From Candidatus Harpocratesius repetitus (GTDB lineage: Archaea; Asgardarchaeota; Lokiarchaeia; Sigyniarchaeales; Promethearchaeaceae), in the NCBI GenBank assembly GCA_021498095.1, contig JAIZWK010000001.1, positions 1,680,001 through 1,712,000 on the forward strand: a stretch of 32,000 bases of DNA, read 5' to 3'. A program made the position numbers and the translations under genes. Below the pieces are notes generated by a model. It did no database searches. It saw only the letters and a list, made by a program, of their open reading frames with translations, and was not told where the DNA came from. The first letter of the stretch is position 1. Every line of letters starts with the position of its first letter. This document shows positions 17,725 to 25,931 of the stretch, one piece after another.

Positions 17725-18423
17725 ATGAAACTTGAACCTTTAACAAAAATTGAATTAGAAGTATATACTGCAATCAAGGAATTATTGAAAAATCATAGAC
17801 AATTTAAGTTGCAAGAAATCTTACCAAAATGCTATAAATTGCTAAATCCTCCATATAAAAATTCTGAAATTTCGAAAGCTATTAACGGTTTAAGTCAGAA
17901 AAGATATATTATTAAGGGGACATCCCTAACACACGAAGATATTCTTCAGAATGCTGTTAGAAAGCGAATTTTAACCTATATTCAAATTAATCCAGGTGCT
18001 TATAATCGAAAAATACGAAGAGATTGTTCACTCGGTTCAAATGAATTTAAATGGCATTTAGGAATGCTAATAAAGTTTGGTTTTATCAAAAAAATTCAAT
18101 TTACTGCAAGATCTTATGGTTATTTCGAAAATCGAGATTATATGGGTCATGAAAAAGATCTTTTCTTACTTCAGAATGAGAAAGTTTCTCAAATAATCAA
18201 TTATCTCTCTGAAAAATCCGGTTCAATTTCAAATATTGCACGAGATTTAGATATTCATTATAATACAATACAGAAATACGTTTCTCTTTTAGAAGAGCGA
18301 GATCTTATTCATAGTTATGAAAATGATGATATTACTTATTTTAAAGTTAATGAAGAATTATTAATTCGATTGAAAAAGATTGTAAACGGGCAAGTTTTTG
18401 TTGATTTTGCATCAAAATACTGA
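17725..18423 (+). CDS. Transcriptional regulator with three winged-HTH modules (COG3398-like tandem HTH plus an extra N-terminal wHTH)
   Basis: ILTYIQINPGAYNRKIRRDCSLGSNEFKWHLGMLIKFGFIK and IINYLSEKSGSISNIARDLDIHYNTIQKYVSLLEERDLI, plus an N-terminal wHTH-like block. GGAGG SD at 17713-17717. Confidence 0.85.
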   Translation: MKLEPLTKIELEVYTAIKELLKNHRQFKLQEILPKCYKLLNPPYKNSEISKAINGLSQKRYIIKGTSLTHEDILQNAVRKRILTYIQINPGAYNRKIRRDCSLGSNEFKWHLGMLIKFGFIKKIQFTARSYGYFENRDYMGHEKDLFLLQNEKVSQIINYLSEKSGSISNIARDLDIHYNTIQKYVSLLEERDLIHSYENDDITYFKVNEELLIRLKKIVNGQVFVDFASKY

Positions 18424-18497: not shown

Positions 18498-20556
18498 CTT
18501 AAGTTTACAAGTTAATTAATTTTTTACAACTTTTTATTATATTTAAAGGCAAAAGATTCTTTTTCATCTCCGACTTATTTCTTTTAGTTGGTTTATTGTC
18601 CTTGTTTATATTCTTTGATTTTTGTCGTCATAGATCTAAATTTCTATCAAATATTTTTGATTATCGTTGTTTTTCTAATGTCCCTCCCATGTAAATTCTG
18701 TATGATCTAAAATTAATCACTATTAAACCGTTGTATTTAGATAAATTCAAATAGTTATCCCTCCCTTATAGAATTGAGACATACCTGACTCGAAAGAAAA
18801 AAAATGGGAAATATTATCTTTATCTTATGGAAGATGCCCGAATTAATGGAAAAAAGAAACATATTCTCCAAAAATATCTAGGTCCGGAGGATAAACTTCA
18901 AGAACTAAAAATCTCGAATGTTCTTTCAAAACATACATCTCAAGTTGATGTTGTCTCTTTCAATTTTGGAATATCCGCCGCTTTATGGCATATTGCTAAA
19001 AAGATTAATCTTATCGAAACCATTGATAGTATAGGTATCAAATCCCGCCGTCAGGGACTTTCACTTGGAGAATTCCTTCTGATTGTTGCAATAAATCGAT
19101 GTAGCGAACCTTGTTCTAAATCCAAACTAGGAATTTGGTTTCAAAAAGATTGGATCTCAACGAAATTTAATATTAAACCCGAGTGCCTAAATGCTCAAAC
19201 ATATTGGAATCATTTTCAATACCTTAACGAAGAGATCATTAATTTACTCGAAACTATGATTAATAAGAAAGTTTTAGCTTCATATAATTTGCAATTAGAG
19301 CACTTACTATTTGATCCAACTAATTTCTTTACTTTTTCAAAAAATAAAAATGATGAAAGCCTGCTTCAATTTGGTCATTCAAAAGAAAATCGAAATGAAA
19401 ATAAATTGGTGAGTTATTCCCTTCTATGTGCCAAAGATTCAGGAGTTCCTGTTATGCATGAAACTTATGCAGGAAACATTCAAGATGCAAATGCATTTAA
19501 ACATATTCCAATAAATATTCAAAATCGGTTAAATCAGCTTGGATATACACCAGAACAAATTACGCTTGTTTTTGATAAAGGAAATCATTCAAAAGAAGCC
19601 TTTAAAGCAATAGATGATGCTAATTTTGGATTTATAGTCTCTGCCCGAAATTCTTCTTATAAAACATTGCTACAATTACCTGAAAGTAAATTTATTGAGA
19701 TCAATCTTCCTGTATCAAATAAATCGGTAAAATATTATAAATGTTCGCGGAAAATCTATGGAAATATGCGTGATGTGTATGTTGTTCTTGATCCTAAAAA
19801 GCAGACAAAGCTTTCTTTTCAATTTGAAACAAAGTTGCAGGAAAAAATCATCGAAATAGATGAATTCTTCGAAAAACGATTAAATATTAAAAAATGGCGC
19901 GATTCGGAAGCAGTAGAAGAAAAATTGCAAGCATTGATTGGCAAGAATCCTTATAAATCAATAATTAAGTACTCTATTAGTGGGAATTATGCACATCTGA
20001 CATATTCAATAACAATTGATAAAAAAGCTAAACAAATTCACCTGAATACTTTGGGAAAATCAATTCTTTTTACAAATCGAACAAAATGGACTGCAGAATC
20101 AATCATTTGGGGTTATCGGGAGCAATATATCGTGGAACATGCATTTAAATATATGAAAAGTCCCACATCTATCGCGATTCGCCCTATGTATCATTATTCT
20201 GAAAAATCGATTCGTGGTCATGTATTTATTTGTGTTTTAAGTTTATTACTACTTTCTTTACTTAGATTAGAATTAGCAAATCATTCCATTCCCCTCAGTT
20301 ATTTTGAACTTCACAATGAATTACAAAATATTCGATTAATGCAGATAAATCTTACTTCACAAGGCAAATCTTTGTGGAAACTTGAAAAAACAAACCCTTT
20401 GGCAACAAAAATAGTCAGAAAATTAAAATTGAAATCTTTAATTCAAAATTAAGAAAAGTCCCTCCCAATTTTTTCATTCTTTCTCGAAAAAAACGATTAA
20501 ATTTTGTATAATTTTGAGCAAATTTTTTTGTCGATTTATTAACTTGTAAACTTAAG
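18498..20556 (+). mobile_element. Complete IS1634-family insertion sequence (2059 bp)
   Basis: Perfect 19-bp TIR CTTAAGTTTACAAGTTAAT (18498-18516; reverse complement at 20538-20556), flanked by AATT direct repeats (18494-18497, 20557-20560). Encloses an IS1634 transposase. Confidence 0.92.
18827..20452 (+). CDS. IS1634-family DDE transposase
   Basis: LLFDPTN, FGHSKENR, VPVMHETYAGNIQD, LVFDKGN, YREQYIVEHAFKYMKS..IRPMYHY..IRGHVFICVLSLL. The open frame with RKKKNGKYYLY continues upstream of this ATG to about 18755. Confidence 0.92.
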   Translation: MEDARINGKKKHILQKYLGPEDKLQELKISNVLSKHTSQVDVVSFNFGISAALWHIAKKINLIETIDSIGIKSRRQGLSLGEFLLIVAINRCSEPCSKSKLGIWFQKDWISTKFNIKPECLNAQTYWNHFQYLNEEIINLLETMINKKVLASYNLQLEHLLFDPTNFFTFSKNKNDESLLQFGHSKENRNENKLVSYSLLCAKDSGVPVMHETYAGNIQDANAFKHIPINIQNRLNQLGYTPEQITLVFDKGNHSKEAFKAIDDANFGFIVSARNSSYKTLLQLPESKFIEINLPVSNKSVKYYKCSRKIYGNMRDVYVVLDPKKQTKLSFQFETKLQEKIIEIDEFFEKRLNIKKWRDSEAVEEKLQALIGKNPYKSIIKYSISGNYAHLTYSITIDKKAKQIHLNTLGKSILFTNRTKWTAESIIWGYREQYIVEHAFKYMKSPTSIAIRPMYHYSEKSIRGHVFICVLSLLLLSLLRLELANHSIPLSYFELHNELQNIRLMQINLTSQGKSLWKLEKTNPLATKIVRKLKLKSLIQN

Positions 20557-20558
20557 AA

Positions 20559-21650
20559 TTACATAATATTTTCAAGTTGATCTATTAATTGGCGTTGTTT
20601 TGAATTTAGGCGTTTATATGGAGGAATTTCTACTTCTACACGAATATAGTGAGCTCCTCGATGATTTCCTCTGCTATTCAAAAAGGGTACTCCTTTGTTT
20701 CGCAGTCTTAATTCAGTTCCTGGGGCAATTCCTGGTTGAATGCGAATTTTGGTTGGGCCATCAACAGTTTCTATCTTTACTTCACAACCTTTAATTGCTT
20801 GGATAAAATTAATTTTAATTGATGAATAAATGTCATTACCTCGCCTTTCGAATCGACGGTCTGGTTTTATCCGGATTTTAACATATAAATCCCCTGGAAT
20901 TGCATCTTTTACTGGGTAATGCCCTTGTCCTTGAATTTTTAAATGCATTCCTTCTTCTACACCAGCCGGAATATTGATTGAATGGCTTTGTTCTACTAAA
21001 ACTGCTTTTTTTCCTTTACAAACAGGACAAGGTCTACCAATAATTTCGCCTTCTCCTCCACATTGTGAACAAGTCACTACTTGTTGCATTAATCCAAGAA
21101 TTGATCGAGTTGTGCGGGTTTCTTGTCCTGTTCCATGACATTTTGGACATGTTCTTATATCTTTTCCACCACGTCCTTCACAATGTGAGCATGGTTCATA
21201 GCGTGAATATTTCAGATTTTTTTTAACACCATGAATAACTTCTGAAAAAGTAAGAGTTATAGTTGTTTCTACATCTTCACCATGTACTCGTCTTCTTCGA
21301 GATCTACGCGAAGAAGATCCTCCCATTCCACCAAAAATATCGCCACCAAAGAACATGTCCATAATATCTGCAAATGAAGAAAAGCCCCCTCCTGAAAAAC
21401 TCATTCCATCCATATCTAAACCATTAAATCCATATCTATCATATTTCTGACGTTTTTCTTGATCGGATAAAACCATATATGCTTCATTAATTTCTTTAAA
21501 TTTTTCTTGGGCTTCTGGGGATTTATTCCGATCAGGATGCCATTTCATTGCTAGTTTTCGAAATGCACGCTTAATCTCATCTGAACTTGCACTTCTGTCT
21601 ACTCCTAATACTTCATAGTAATCTCGTTTATTCTTACTTCGGTTGGCCAT
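20559..21650 (-). CDS. dnaJ: Molecular chaperone DnaJ (type I Hsp40)
   Basis: J-domain with HPD, G/F-rich region, four CxxCxGxG-type repeats (last one degenerate, CPVCKGKK), two C-terminal beta domains. Confidence 0.98.
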
Positions 21651-21813: not shown

Positions 21814-23778
21814 TTATTCATCTTCCCATTCAACATCGACAACTTTCTTTTTTTCTTTGCTTTTTCCAGATGGTTGTTCGTATGTTGCTCCACCTTGACT
21901 TCCGAAACCAGCACCACCTTGAGCTGCTTGTTGTGCAAATTTAGCTGCTTGAGCTGGATCCATACCGCCCATACCGCCCATTCCACCTGGTGCTCCGCCT
22001 TGAGCATAGATTTTTTCTGCTAGCTTATGCAAATGCTCTTCTAATGAGGTTTTTGCTTCTTTAATTCTGTTAATGTTCTCTGATTTTAATGCATCTTTTA
22101 CGTCATCAATCGCTTTAACTAGTTTGTTTTTTAGATCATCATCTAGTTTATCTGCGTGTTCTTTCATCATTTTTTCAGCTTGAAATGCAAGTGCATCTGC
22201 TTCATTCTTTGTTTCTATTTGTTCACGGATTTTTTTATCTTCTTCTGCATGTTTTTCAGCATCACGAATCTTAGCTTGAATTTCTTCTTCGGTAAGTTTT
22301 GATTGTCCAGTAATGGTGATTGATTGTTCTTTGCCTGTGCCTAAATCTTTGGCATTTACATGGACGATTCCGTTTTGATCTATTGAGAAAGTGACTTCAA
22401 TCTGAGGTACACCTCTGGGAGCAGGTGGAATACCATCTAAATGGAAACGACCTAATGTAATATTATCTTTTGCCATTGGACGTTCTCCTTGAATGACATG
22501 AATTTCTACACTTGGTTGATTATCAGTGGCAGTAGAGAATACTTTAGATCGCTCTACAGGGATTGTGGTATTTCTTTCGATCAAAGGAGTGGCAACACCA
22601 CCTAATGTTTCAATGCTGAGTGTTAAGGGCGTAACATCTAATAGTAATAAGTCTTCAACTTCTCCACTGAGTACTCCACCTTGAATTGCAGCACCTTGAG
22701 CAACACATTCCATTGGATCAATTCCCTTTTCGGGTTTACGTCCAAAGAAATCTTCATATACTTTTTGTACTGAAGGCATTCGGGAAGGTCCACCGACCAT
22801 AATTATTTTTTTTATATCTGATTTTTTCAGTTTTGAATCGCGTAAGGCTCTTTCCATCGGTGGGATTAAACGATTTAAGATTGGATCAATTAGTTCTTCA
22901 AATTTAGCTCGGGTCAATTCTAAATCTAAACTTAATGGTTGACCATCTTTACCCATTGCAATAAATGGTAAGTTAATTTGAGTTGAATAAGTAGTAGAGA
23001 GTTCTATTTTTGCTTTTTCAGCTGCATCAATTATTCTCATCATTGCTTGTGAATCATTAGAAAGATCAACATCAGTTTGTTTTTTGAATTCACTAATAAT
23101 CCACTCTTTTACGACTTCATCCATATCTGTTCCGCCTAATGCTGTATCTCCTGAGGTAGATAAGACTTCAAATACACCTTCACCCATTTCCATTATGGTT
23201 ACATCAAATGTTCCTCCACCTAAGTCAAGTACAGCGACTTTCATGGATCCTTGGTCTGTTTTATCTAATCCATAAGCAATACATGCTGCGGTTGGTTCGT
23301 TAATTATTCGTACGACATCTAAACCAGCAATTCTACCTGCATCTTTTGTAGCTGTTCTTTGAGAATCATTAAAATATGCAGGAACGGTGATAACTGCTTT
23401 TTCTATTTTTTCACCGAGGTAATCTTCAGAATCTTTCTTGATTTTTTGTAAAATCATGGCACTTATTTCTTCTGGAGTGTATTCCTTATTATCAATGCGA
23501 ATTTTTTCACTAGTTCCCATTTTTCTTTTTATTTTTCGAATGGTTCGATCAGGATTAGAAATCGCTTGTCGACGAGCTGGTTCACCGACTAATCTAGTAC
23601 CATCTTTAAGGAATGCAACATATGATGGAAATGCTTTACCACCCAATGAAACTCCTTCGGCAGCAGGGATAATTTCTGGTTTACCACCAATCATAACAGC
23701 AGCAGCTGAATTTGATGTTCCAAGATCAATTCCCAGGATTTTTTCTTTACGTGTTTTCTTTTCGTTTTCATTAGTCAT
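21814..23778 (-). CDS. dnaK: Molecular chaperone DnaK (Hsp70), archaeal/Gram-positive type
   Basis: [46 protein letters not shown]-repeat tail. ATG 23778 preferred because GTGAT (SD-like) lies 5 nt upstream; the ORF track starts at GTG 23787. Confidence 0.99.
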
Positions 23779-23879
23779 ATTTATCACGACCTGTTCAATA
23801 TGTGTTTCTGAATAGGATTAACATGATTTTTAATCTCTATAATAATGATGTGATTCAATGTTTATAAATGTATTGATTT

Positions 23880-23900
23880 ATGACAACTTAAGGTTGTCAT
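23880..23900. promoter_or_regulatory. Palindromic operator-like site ATGACAAC-TTAAG-GTTGTCAT in the dnaK divergent promoter
   Basis: Perfect 8-bp inverted arms with a 5-bp spacer, between TATA-like TTTATAAA (23861-23868) and TTTATATT (23900-23907). Confidence 0.75.
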
Positions 23901-23973
23901 TTATATTATTGAAATCTATATTGAAAATCACTAAGATGAAAATTTTTTTACTTCCCTCGTATTAGCCTATATA

Positions 23974-24264
23974 ATGGGATCCGAACCTGATGCAGATCAA
24001 ATGATTCATTGGATTCTGCAAAGTTTATATTTATTACTGGATGGGCAAGTTTCGGACACGCTCATATTATCTTCGCATAAAATTAATACGATTTTAGTTC
24101 AAAAATGTGGTGTTAACTTGAAAATTGATCGTATTGGTCGTTATTTGGCGCGTTTTTCCCGCCAACATCAATTAAAACGCCTTTCTACAAAGATTCCAAA
24201 ATATGTGGTAAAAAAGGAGTTGCTTCAAAAAATTTTGCAATCTTATTCAATAAAAACCACTTAG
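23974..24264 (+). CDS. Small basic protein, winged-helix-like (96 aa)
   Basis: Pattern helix-strand-helix-helix-wing (ADQMIHWILQSL / LILS / SHKINTILVQK / IDRIGRYLARFSRQ / LKRLSTKIPKYVV). The ORF is likely real; the fold is inferred. Confidence 0.65.
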   Translation: MGSEPDADQMIHWILQSLYLLLDGQVSDTLILSSHKINTILVQKCGVNLKIDRIGRYLARFSRQHQLKRLSTKIPKYVVKKELLQKILQSYSIKTT

Positions 24265-24312: not shown

Positions 24313-25110
24313 GTGCCACAAACAACCAATCAGCGTCGTTATGATCATTTTATTCAATCTGGGTTAAATGCTTATAATAAAGCTGTTGAATCAAAATCAT
24401 TGAAAAAAACAGTTCTTTTAGCACAACAATCCATGGATTATTTTGAAAAAGCAATTCAAATGGCTGAACTTGTTGCAATGGAAGAACGAATTCCTTACGT
24501 GAATGAATATATTGTTCTTAATCATGCATTGATTGCTAACATTCTATTTCAAGAAAAGAAATATGATGAATCTCTACGAGCTTATGAAAAAGCCATGGAA
24601 ATTAATGAAAAAACGCTTAAAAATCAGGAAACCTTAATTCGAGATTGCTTTATTTCATCAGAAATGACTAAATTATATCTCTTACAGAAAAAAAAGATCT
24701 TAGTTGACAAAACAGCATGGAGAATTTTTAAAAATGCTAAAAATCTTGAAGATAAGCAAAAAGCGGTTAAATATTTAACAATTGCTCAAGAATTTTTTAA
24801 AAATTCAGAAAACTTATCTGGAGAAGAAAAAACATGGAAAGCTTTGCTAAAAATCTTAAAAAAGAATTGGGCAAATGATACAAAAATTAAACATGAGGAT
24901 GCAAAAACTAAAAAAATTGATATTTCAACTATTTATGATAAAATTAGAGCAGAAAAATATAATGCATATGGAGATTTTTTATTAAATAGATCTAAAAAAC
25001 CAAATTTATCAAATATTCGTAAATATTGGAAAAAATCTGCGGTATTGTATCATAAACTTCACTTAGAAAAAAAAGCGAAAGCAGTAGAAAAAAAAATCAT
25101 GAGTGTATAG
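24313..25110 (+). CDS. Lys-rich TPR-like helical-repeat protein (265 aa)
   Basis: Repeats such as IANILFQEKKYDESLRAYEKAMEIN. GTG start with GGAAGGT upstream; 48 bp after the previous gene. Confidence 0.75.
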   Translation: MPQTTNQRRYDHFIQSGLNAYNKAVESKSLKKTVLLAQQSMDYFEKAIQMAELVAMEERIPYVNEYIVLNHALIANILFQEKKYDESLRAYEKAMEINEKTLKNQETLIRDCFISSEMTKLYLLQKKKILVDKTAWRIFKNAKNLEDKQKAVKYLTIAQEFFKNSENLSGEEKTWKALLKILKKNWANDTKIKHEDAKTKKIDISTIYDKIRAEKYNAYGDFLLNRSKKPNLSNIRKYWKKSAVLYHKLHLEKKAKAVEKKIMSV

Positions 25111-25145: not shown

Positions 25146-25931
25146 TTATTGATTCCAGCCCAGTTCATTCATTATCCTATCTATGAGATATTCTGTCTCT
25201 TTCAACGAAATTCCTTGGATATTTTGATCTTTTTCTGATATCAAATGAAGTTCAAGTAAATCCTGAATTGTATTTTTCCATACTTCTAAAGAGATATCGA
25301 ATTCACTAAAAAAGAAATTTTGAACTTTTTTTTTTGAAAAATCTCCAAAATCCATCAACAAAGCGAGCAAATCGAAAGCAAAGGGATGGAAAACTTTTTC
25401 TTTGTATAATTGCTTTAAAACATTTATCGCGAATCCAATCTTCTTTTGTTGATAATGCAGAAAATGAATTGTATATTTCCGTTCTGGGTGATTTTTACAT
25501 ACATATCCTTTGGATTTTGGGTAATTTCTACACATTTCTGGATGATTTCCATGAATAATACAATATGGAATATTTTCAGCAGTTTTCAAAGAAGATTGTG
25601 GGAAAGAAGATTGGTGCCAAGCTAAAAATAGACATTCTTTTGATTTTTTTGAGCTATATGGGAGAAAATTCTCTGCTAATTTTGGATGTCTTTCCCAAAT
25701 TTGTCGTTTGGAAGGAATATAATATCTATTTTCTTTGGTAGATGAATCAAAAATACACCATTTCTGCTGAATTTTTCGATAAAGTGTAATATATGGATGT
25801 TGATTTTTTTCTCTTATTTCTTGATGACTTGATTCAGAATAATTTGGAGAAATGAAGGATTCTGAGGATTTGAAATGGATTTGACCTTCAAATTCTATAC
25901 AACATTTCCCACAGCGCGAACATTGGAACAT
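25146..25931 (-). CDS. YkgJ-family (CxxCxxCC) cysteine-cluster protein with C-terminal wHTH-like domain
   Basis: FQCSRCGKCC, ECLFL, YCIIHGNHPEMCRNYP; C-terminal helices LLALLMDFGDFSKKKVQNFF...WKNTIQDLLELHLIS. Confidence 0.85.
   Translation of the reverse strand: MFQCSRCGKCCIEFEGQIHFKSSESFISPNYSESSHQEIREKNQHPYITLYRKIQQKWCIFDSSTKENRYYIPSKRQIWERHPKLAENFLPYSSKKSKECLFLAWHQSSFPQSSLKTAENIPYCIIHGNHPEMCRNYPKSKGYVCKNHPERKYTIHFLHYQQKKIGFAINVLKQLYKEKVFHPFAFDLLALLMDFGDFSKKKVQNFFFSEFDISLEVWKNTIQDLLELHLISEKDQNIQGISLKETEYLIDRIMNELGWNQ

Follow-up and report, generated by a model that had tools for sequence, protein, structure and literature searches.

Only two archaeal heat-shock regulators have been studied, Phr and HSR1, both from hyperthermophilic Euryarchaeota (PMC9133787, PMC10653856). 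Phr is a negative regulator of hsp20 and of an AAA+ ATPase gene, and it blocks recruitment of RNA polymerase by binding a palindromic site over the start site (PMC9133787, PMC10746257). HSR1 binds the motif CTAAC-N5-GTTAG, shares an operon with hsp20, and autoregulates (PMC9133787). Both regulons contain a small heat-shock protein (sHSP) gene and an AAA+ ATPase gene, and the thermosome is included in neither (PMC10653856). The element considered here is a palindromic dyad in the dnaK promoter of "Candidatus Harpocratesius repetitus," which lies in a window of 32,000 nucleotides spanning bases 1680001-1712000 of the single-contig genome of this organism (4.36 Mb, 31% GC). The dyad is very probably a conserved cis-regulatory site of a chaperone regulon. 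With moderate confidence, it is interpreted here as a heat-shock operator that governs a protein-disaggregation regulon within one Lokiarchaeia family and that is most likely read by a homolog of Phr. Literature searches found no account of a stress regulon for any Asgard archaeon, in agreement with the original prediction, made from the sequence of the window, which had known of none.

The dyad reads ATGACAAC-TTAAG-GTTGTCAT (window positions 23880-23900, an 8 + 8 repeat when the flanking A and T at 23880 and 23900 are counted) and is located inside the 195-bp spacer between dnaK and a divergent open reading frame (ORF) of 96 amino acids (aa), referred to here as P0001. Measured from its center, the dnaK ATG is 112 bp away, and that of P0001 is 84 bp away. 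The arrangement originally described, with the dyad between two TATA-like boxes in the space shared by dnaK and the divergent ORF, was confirmed by the sequence (Table 1). On the sequence evidence, the TTTATAAA box is probably the dnaK core promoter, which would place the dyad on top of the position of the transcription factor B recognition element (BRE) or immediately upstream of it; the dnaK spacers of related genomes have a TTTATA or TTTAAA box on the same side and at a similar distance from the dyad. The downstream gene dnaJ is probably cotranscribed with dnaK, and the order of the two genes is kept in relatives.

Across the 4.36-Mb genome, the exact 8 + 8 dyad is present as a single copy, and only 0.5% of 200 composition-matched palindromic half-sites had any exact genomic copy. 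Allowing up to 2 mismatches, the 8 + 8 dyad has three matches, all intergenic and with 0, 1, and 2 mismatches, respectively: the dnaK site itself, a site at genome position 1101685 that lies 44 bp before three tandem HSP20 genes, and a site at 4025577 between an Lrp/AsnC-type regulator gene and an operon of hsp20-like, CS-domain, and grpE genes. The promoter of a gene encoding a 198-aa Hsp20 (3.20 Mb) bears TGTTAAC-ATTAA-GTTAACA, and a site 100 bp upstream of clpB surfaced only once the pattern was generalized to TGWYAAC-N5-GTTRWCA. The generalized pattern has four exact matches in the genome, all intergenic and all at chaperone promoters; among its five matches at 1 mismatch, the site of the hsp20 triplet is the sole intergenic one, and the reversed control pattern had 0 matches. 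In all, five sites are found 44 to 112 bp before chaperone genes, namely, dnaK-dnaJ, clpB, the hsp20-like/CS-domain/grpE operon, the triple hsp20, and the 198-aa hsp20. The genome scan that had been put forward as a check on the original prediction thus has its best matches upstream of sHSP, clpB, and grpE genes.

The same five sites ranked at the top (20.5 to 25.2 bits, with the next match at 15.7 bits) when a weight matrix built solely from sites in other genomes was run on this one, and the dnaK dyad was the third-best match, at 23.4 bits. By raw count, there is no significant enrichment: the strict 7 + 7 dyad with up to 2 mismatches has 7 matches in the genome, a number that 64% of permuted palindromes reach. 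Since the mismatch-tolerant counts are unremarkable, the signal is carried by the location of the matches alone. No dyad was found at the three thermosome genes or at three further hsp20 genes (genome positions 1616721-1617945 and 2983085-2983870). The sixth match to the matrix, at genome positions 2462771-2462789, is an intergenic perfect palindrome (TGTAAAC-TTTAT-GTTTACA, 15.7 bits) located 118 bp before three small genes without a Pfam family; it may be an extra member of the regulon or a chance match.

Relatives were drawn from the same family (f1) and from three sister families, giving 31 genomes of the order in all. Exact TGWYAAC-N5-GTTRWCA sites occur in 6 of the 13 other f1 genomes versus 0 of the 17 genomes of the sister families. 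A dyad with no more than 2 mismatches is present 19 to 170 bp before dnaK in 12 of the 13 f1 genomes, and the thirteenth has GAAC-N5-GTTC. When five orthologous dnaK spacers are aligned, the mean column identity is 53%, and no long block apart from the dyad is invariant. Exact copies in relatives precede dnaK, clpB, the hsp20-like/CS pair, the 198-aa hsp20, the three hsp20 genes, another hsp20, a padR-hsp20 operon, and htpG, the last with TGACAAC-ATTTG-GTTAACA about 84 bp upstream of the Hsp90 gene in genome G006 (contig C655, locus L030). The dyad is mostly missing from the dnaK promoters of families f3 and f4; because dnaK can sit behind grpE there, these dyad-poor promoters say little about the regulons of the two families. 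Taken together, the genome scan and the footprint of the dnaK promoters, which had also been suggested as a check and in which the dyad is kept in those 12 genomes, support the earlier proposal of an operator for chaperone control.

The way in which the site varies is informative about what reads it. The AAC-N5-GTT core is invariant in all 27 of the sites collected, only 4 of which are perfect palindromes. The half-site variants TGACAAC and TGTTAAC mix freely, without compensatory change, and half-site positions 3 and 4 are noncomplementary in 12 of the 27 sites, with the base identity of each half-site conserved. Few perfect palindromes, free mixing of variants, and an invariant core point to a dimeric protein that reads two half-sites and not to a hairpin of RNA or DNA. 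The palindrome could instead work as a nucleic acid structure, forming either a DNA cruciform or, in the 5' leader, a hairpin that acts as an RNA thermometer or attenuator, given that the dnaK copy can form a stem of 7 to 8 bp with a 5-nucleotide (nt) loop and that the hsp20 dyads, which come after the probable TATA box, may be part of the transcript. The lack of compensatory changes renders such a role extremely unlikely; moreover, the probable TATA box at dnaK, clpB, and the grpE operon is downstream of the dyad, so that the dyad there would not be transcribed, and the dyads lie 44 to 112 nt from the start codons and cover no ribosome-binding site.

The best candidate for the protein that binds the dyad is the sole Phr homolog in the genome, a 310-aa protein whose identification as the binding factor is reasonably probable from comparative data. 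Its best match in the PDB by phmmer is Phr of Pyrococcus furiosus (2P4W_A; E value, 2e-10), with residues 49 to 220 aligning with Phr residues 7 to 168, which comprise the ArsR-type winged helix-turn-helix (wHTH) and coiled coil. The cdc48-phr gene pair is kept across families f1 and f3, and in relatives, it is linked to the dyad. TGTTAAC-ATTTT-GTTGGCA is followed by hsp20-CS-cdc48-phr in G010, GGTAAAC-CTTTA-GTTAACA is followed by hsp20-cdc48-phr in G004, and the operon of this type in G011 has an imperfect copy, AGTGAAC-TAAAA-GTTGTCT, 24 nt after a TTTAAATA box. The hsp20-cdc48-phr operons of f3 (G021, G028, and G015) contain palindromes of the TGTCAAT-N5-ATTGACA type about 12 to 22 nt after the TATA box, which look like a family-specific version of the operator. 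In f4, the phr homolog is behind clpB in a dnaK-dnaJ-clpB cluster. The recognition helix segment is VSKQAIKKHL in f1, ISRQAIHSQL in f3, and VSRQAILKQL in f4; it changes together with the operator between f1 and f3, and no operator was identified for f4. The hsp20-cdc48-phr operon appears to be ancestral and to have been split in the genome studied here, where one dyad remains at the 198-aa hsp20 (3.20 Mb) and another at the hsp20-like/CS pair and grpE (4.03 Mb).

The original prediction had paired the dyad with P0001, which would bind it, control dnaK, and autoregulate. Part of that proposal stands, in that the protein is wHTH-like at the level of its fold: the AlphaFold2 (AF2) model (predicted local distance difference test score, 87) has the winged-helix topology H-E-H-H-E-E-H (helices 7-24, 34-45, 51-65, and 81-90; strands 29-33, 68-71, and 76-80). 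P0001 is also basic (isoelectric point, 9.9), shares the dnaK spacer in this genome and in G002, is encoded within a few kilobases of dnaK in G010, G006, and G011, and has PadR-type and other small regulators among its structural neighbors, with Z scores of up to 7.1. Structure searches (Foldseek against the PDB, E of at least 0.02; VIA, Z of no more than 7.1) nevertheless recovered generic winged helices only, both DNA binding and not, the latter including Cdt1, Stn1, and eS25-like folds; neither Foldseek nor VIA gave a specific family, and a protein-atlas look-up gave unnamed Promethearchaeota clusters only.

The distribution of P0001 makes its role as the dyad-binding factor highly improbable. 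Its gene is single copy in 30 of the 31 genomes, in all four families, yet the exact dyad is confined to f1, and the putative recognition helix of P0001 (KIDRIGRxLA) does not vary in an alignment of 14 homologs, which are 42 to 77% identical. The usual context of the gene, seen in at least 10 f1 genomes and throughout the family, is a same-strand cluster in which it follows a gene for a protein of about 265 aa (X) and precedes one for a tetratricopeptide repeat (TPR) protein of about 255 aa. No dyad was present within 300 bp upstream of the orthologs in G001, G003 to G006, and G009 to G013 or in G021 and G024 of f3; the dyad is upstream of P0001 solely where dnaK is directly divergent, as in this genome (G000) and G002. 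In G010 and G006, P0001 and the TPR gene come first, then the dyad, and directly after it dnaK. In G001, of the same genus, P0001 and the dyad are about 790 bp apart, with a 156-aa ORF between them, and on metagenomic contigs, dnaK and the dyad are both missing from the surroundings of a 46%-identical homolog. These contexts indicate that the dyad goes with dnaK and not with P0001. P0001 is best regarded as a bystander that came to lie beside the operator when dnaK was inverted in this genus; it is a real, conserved gene and probably not the dyad binder. The pairing originally proposed is thus not upheld, given orthologs across the order that are usually in their own cluster without a dyad and a Phr homolog that is dyad linked elsewhere, and the predicted autoregulation finds no counterpart in a dyad upstream of orthologs outside the genus.

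The dyad at the grpE operon lies 85 bp upstream of the start of a divergent gene for a 232-aa Lrp/AsnC-type regulator, which might itself bind the dyad and autoregulate. The protein clearly belongs to a DNA-binding family (HTH_AsnC-type, 1.4e-11; PDB 2IA0, 5.5e-13), and the same divergent arrangement of AsnC-type gene and dyad is seen in one close relative (L016). In G001, however, the gene divergent from the hsp20-like/CS operon encodes a MASE1 protein, and AsnC orthologs with 61 to 69% identity, in Lokiarchaeum ossiferum and on two other contigs, have no chaperone neighbors and no dyad upstream. Those orthologs, like the copy in this genome, show TTGGAAA..TTC boxes instead. The usual Lrp boxes are 13 to 15 bp long, unlike the 19-bp dyad with its 12-bp half-site spacing. 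Control of the chaperone promoters by this regulator is accordingly judged quite improbable. The TTGGAAA..TTC(C)AA boxes (genome positions 4025600-4025672; L016 to L019), for example, TTGGAAATATTCCAA in L016, precede AsnC orthologs whatever their neighbors and are probably the autoregulatory site of the AsnC-type regulator itself.

There is a small but appreciable chance that the dyad is a real chaperone operator read by some other factor, such as a double-wHTH or PadR-like protein, which may activate from a position upstream of the TATA box. A gene for a 232-aa double-wHTH protein is downstream of dnaJ and syntenic with dnaJ-dnaK in relatives, in G010 the dyad is 114 bp upstream of the start of a PadR-like gene, and several sites are just upstream of the TATA box, a position used by archaeal activators. 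There is, however, no dyad near the double-wHTH gene and no link between it and the other four loci; the protein showed no similarity to the AsnC-type protein and had no relative in the PDB. Both it and the PadR-like protein fit the precedent of the HSR1-like motif and its regulator less well than does the Phr homolog. The PadR-like regulator was rejected as the main dyad binder because separate, conserved TTCGAA..CGAA boxes flank the TATA box of its operon across the order, and the dyad is present in G010 only. The operon itself, which is found throughout the order, encodes the PadR-like protein (192 aa), an Hsp20 (165 aa), a 77-aa ORF, and a second Hsp20 (141 aa) (L079/L080), and the padR-hsp20 pair is kept across f1 and f3. 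Its promoter contains TTCGAA/CGAA repeats on both sides of TTTAAATA, for example, TATTCGA-TTT-TCGAATA, with ATTCGAT..CGATA variants in f3, and it looks like a second, separate circuit for sHSP control.

Table 1. Locations of the dyad, the genes discussed, and neighboring features
Feature	Location	Strand	Description
Operator dyad	window 23881..23899	.	TGACAAC-TTAAG-GTTGTCA, perfect 7 + 7
TATA-like box TTTATAAA	window 23861..23868	-	12 nt downstream of the dyad, toward dnaK
TATA-like box TTTATATTA	window 23900-23908		Other flank of the dyad
dnaK (Hsp70)	window 21814..23778	-	654 aa, ATG at 23778; Pfam HSP70, 1.5e-223; first gene behind the operator
dnaJ	window 20559..21650	-	J domain, Cys-rich and C-terminal domains; Pfam DnaJ, DnaJ_CXXCXGXG, DnaJ_C; downstream of dnaK
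P0001	window 23974-24264	+	96 aa, basic winged-helix protein, isoelectric point 9.9, no Pfam family; divergent from dnaK
TPR protein gene	window 24313..25110	+	265 aa; Pfam TPR_1/TPR_2; downstream partner of P0001
X	window 25146-25931		CxxCxxCC/YkgJ-like protein; probable counterpart of the gene before P0001, inverted in this window
DDE transposase gene	window 18827-20452		541 aa
Double-wHTH gene	window 17725-18423		232 aa
Phr homolog	genome 4001521-4002453		310 aa, directly after cdc48; Pfam HTH_5 (5.4e-9) and HTH_20
Lrp/AsnC-type regulator gene	genome 4025672-4026370		232 aa; divergent from the hsp20-like/CS/grpE operon
padR-like-hsp20 operon	genome 1616721-1618508		PadR-like, Hsp20, 77-aa ORF, Hsp20

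In the mechanism favored here, a dimeric transcription factor would read two 7-bp half-sites (TGACAAC or TGTTAAC) with 5 AT-rich bases between them. The factor would most likely be the single Phr/HSR1-family protein of the genome, which has an ArsR-type winged helix and a coiled coil and which, by analogy with Phr and HSR1, would bind at normal temperature. What binding would occlude differs by promoter: the BRE/TATA region of dnaK, of clpB, and of the grpE operon but the start site region of the hsp20 genes. Stress would release the factor from these promoters. The sequence data establish the sites, their restriction to chaperone promoters, their conservation, and a Phr homolog that is linked to the dyad; binding of the dyad by this homolog, repression, and heat as the signal are inferences. 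Two promoter geometries were found, and both recur in orthologous promoters. In the first, seen at the 198-aa hsp20 and at the hsp20 triplet, a TTTAAATA box is located 27 to 35 nt upstream of the dyad, which would place the dyad over the expected start site region, as in the Phr geometry. In the second, seen at dnaK, at clpB, at the grpE operon, and at the cdc48-phr operons of relatives, 0 to 12 nt separate the dyad from a TATA-like box downstream of it, so that the dyad would cover the BRE position and hinder binding of TFB and TBP. Both geometries fit repression by occlusion.

A number of observations weigh against repression by the Phr homolog. In this genome, cdc48-phr (4.00 Mb) has no full dyad upstream, only a half-site-like TCTTAAC-CTAAA-GC, so that autoregulation is not evident here, and the protein is about 100 residues longer than Phr. 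Three other helix-turn-helix genes are near the sites or near dnaK, namely, P0001, the AsnC-type gene, and the double-wHTH gene. The covariation of regulator and operator is drawn from two or three lineages, and related genomes are not independent samples. Finally, sites upstream of the TATA box could equally fit an activator, and TATA assignments in a genome of 31% GC are themselves tentative.

The neighborhood of dnaK has further features of note. The P0001-TPR pair is present in every f1 genome that could be read, whereas in G021 of f3, X and P0001 are kept with no TPR gene after them. The P0001-paired TPR gene is next to or near dnaK in several f1 genomes. The C terminus of DnaK (window positions 21814-21850) is an acidic EWEDE tail, and a TPR gene near a DnaK with such a tail is reminiscent of the way in which TPR cochaperones bind to the EEVD tail of Hsp70 in eukaryotes. 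On the far side of dnaJ, the DDE transposase gene lies between it and the double-wHTH gene, an insertion that is not found in relatives.

A broader reading, which remains tentative and which we would not yet place at even chances, is that a repressor of the Phr/HSR1 type controls the whole bacterially derived Hsp70 disaggregase network (dnaK-dnaJ, grpE, clpB, and htpG) together with the native sHSP and cdc48 genes and that P0001-TPR is not a regulator and serves as a cochaperone-like module for the EWEDE-tailed DnaK. If this is true, Loki-type Asgard archaea would have a single unified proteostasis regulon, in which regulator and operator coevolve between families (TGWYAAC-N5-GTTRWCA versus TGTCAAT-N5-ATTGACA). 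The analysis has defined an operator and a regulon of five promoters in one complete genome; it has also collected about 27 sites from the family and named a candidate repressor. It indicates that horizontally acquired bacterial chaperone genes (dnaK, dnaJ, grpE, clpB, and htpG) have been wired into an archaeal-type circuit, supplies candidate stress-inducible promoters for Asgard genetics, and corrects the neighbor-based assignment of a small winged-helix gene as the regulator.

Compared with known systems, the locus resembles the bacterial HrcA-CIRCE system in having a palindromic operator before dnaK-dnaJ and grpE and in the same bacterial-type chaperone genes. The resemblance ends there. 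HrcA (PF01628) had no match anywhere in the genome, in searches to which control families responded, and no CIRCE element (TTAGCACTC-N9-GAGTGCTAA) was found genome-wide at up to 3 mismatches, so that the absence of both, first reported for the window, holds for the whole genome. The spacer of the dyad is 5 bp and not 9 bp, the sequence is unrelated, and the genes have archaeal TATA-type promoters. Phr (PF1790 of P. furiosus and its Thermococcus kodakarensis counterpart; 2P4W) is closer, as no solved structure matches the 310-aa candidate better, and the hsp20 sites described here are 27 to 35 nt downstream of the probable TATA box. The candidate differs in its roughly 100 additional residues, which form N- and C-terminal extensions. 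The Phr site is TTTA/TGGTAA/AAAA over 29 bp, in contrast to TGWYAAC-N5-GTTRWCA, half of the sites reported here abut the upstream side of the TATA box, and the host, an Asgard archaeon, is mesophilic or moderately thermophilic and not a hyperthermophile.

The comparison with HSR1 (AF1298 of Archaeoglobus fulgidus) is based on its motif and operon as described in a review (PMC9133787). The likeness of the motifs noted in the original prediction extends to every site collected, with the same AAC-N5-GTT core and spacing, and the commonest half-site gives TTAAC-N5-GTTAA. As with HSR1, the regulator is in an operon with a cdc48-type AAA+ ATPase gene and hsp20 behind its own putative operator in relatives (G010, G004, and G011), and as with both HSR1 and Phr, the thermosome is outside the regulon, since the three thermosome genes here are without a site. 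The differences are that the half-site is longer and its outer positions differ, TG(A/T)(C/T)AAC; that the gene order in relatives is hsp20-(CS)-cdc48-phr, with the regulator last; that the operon is split in this genome, leaving the regulator without a full site upstream; and that the regulon adds the bacterial-type dnaK-dnaJ, grpE, and clpB, as well as htpG in one relative. The dyad regulon is thus viewed as belonging to the Phr/HSR1 type, of which it is a new representative from Asgard archaea, set apart by a longer and different half-site, a longer regulator, covariation of operator and regulator between families, and the inclusion of bacterial-type chaperones.

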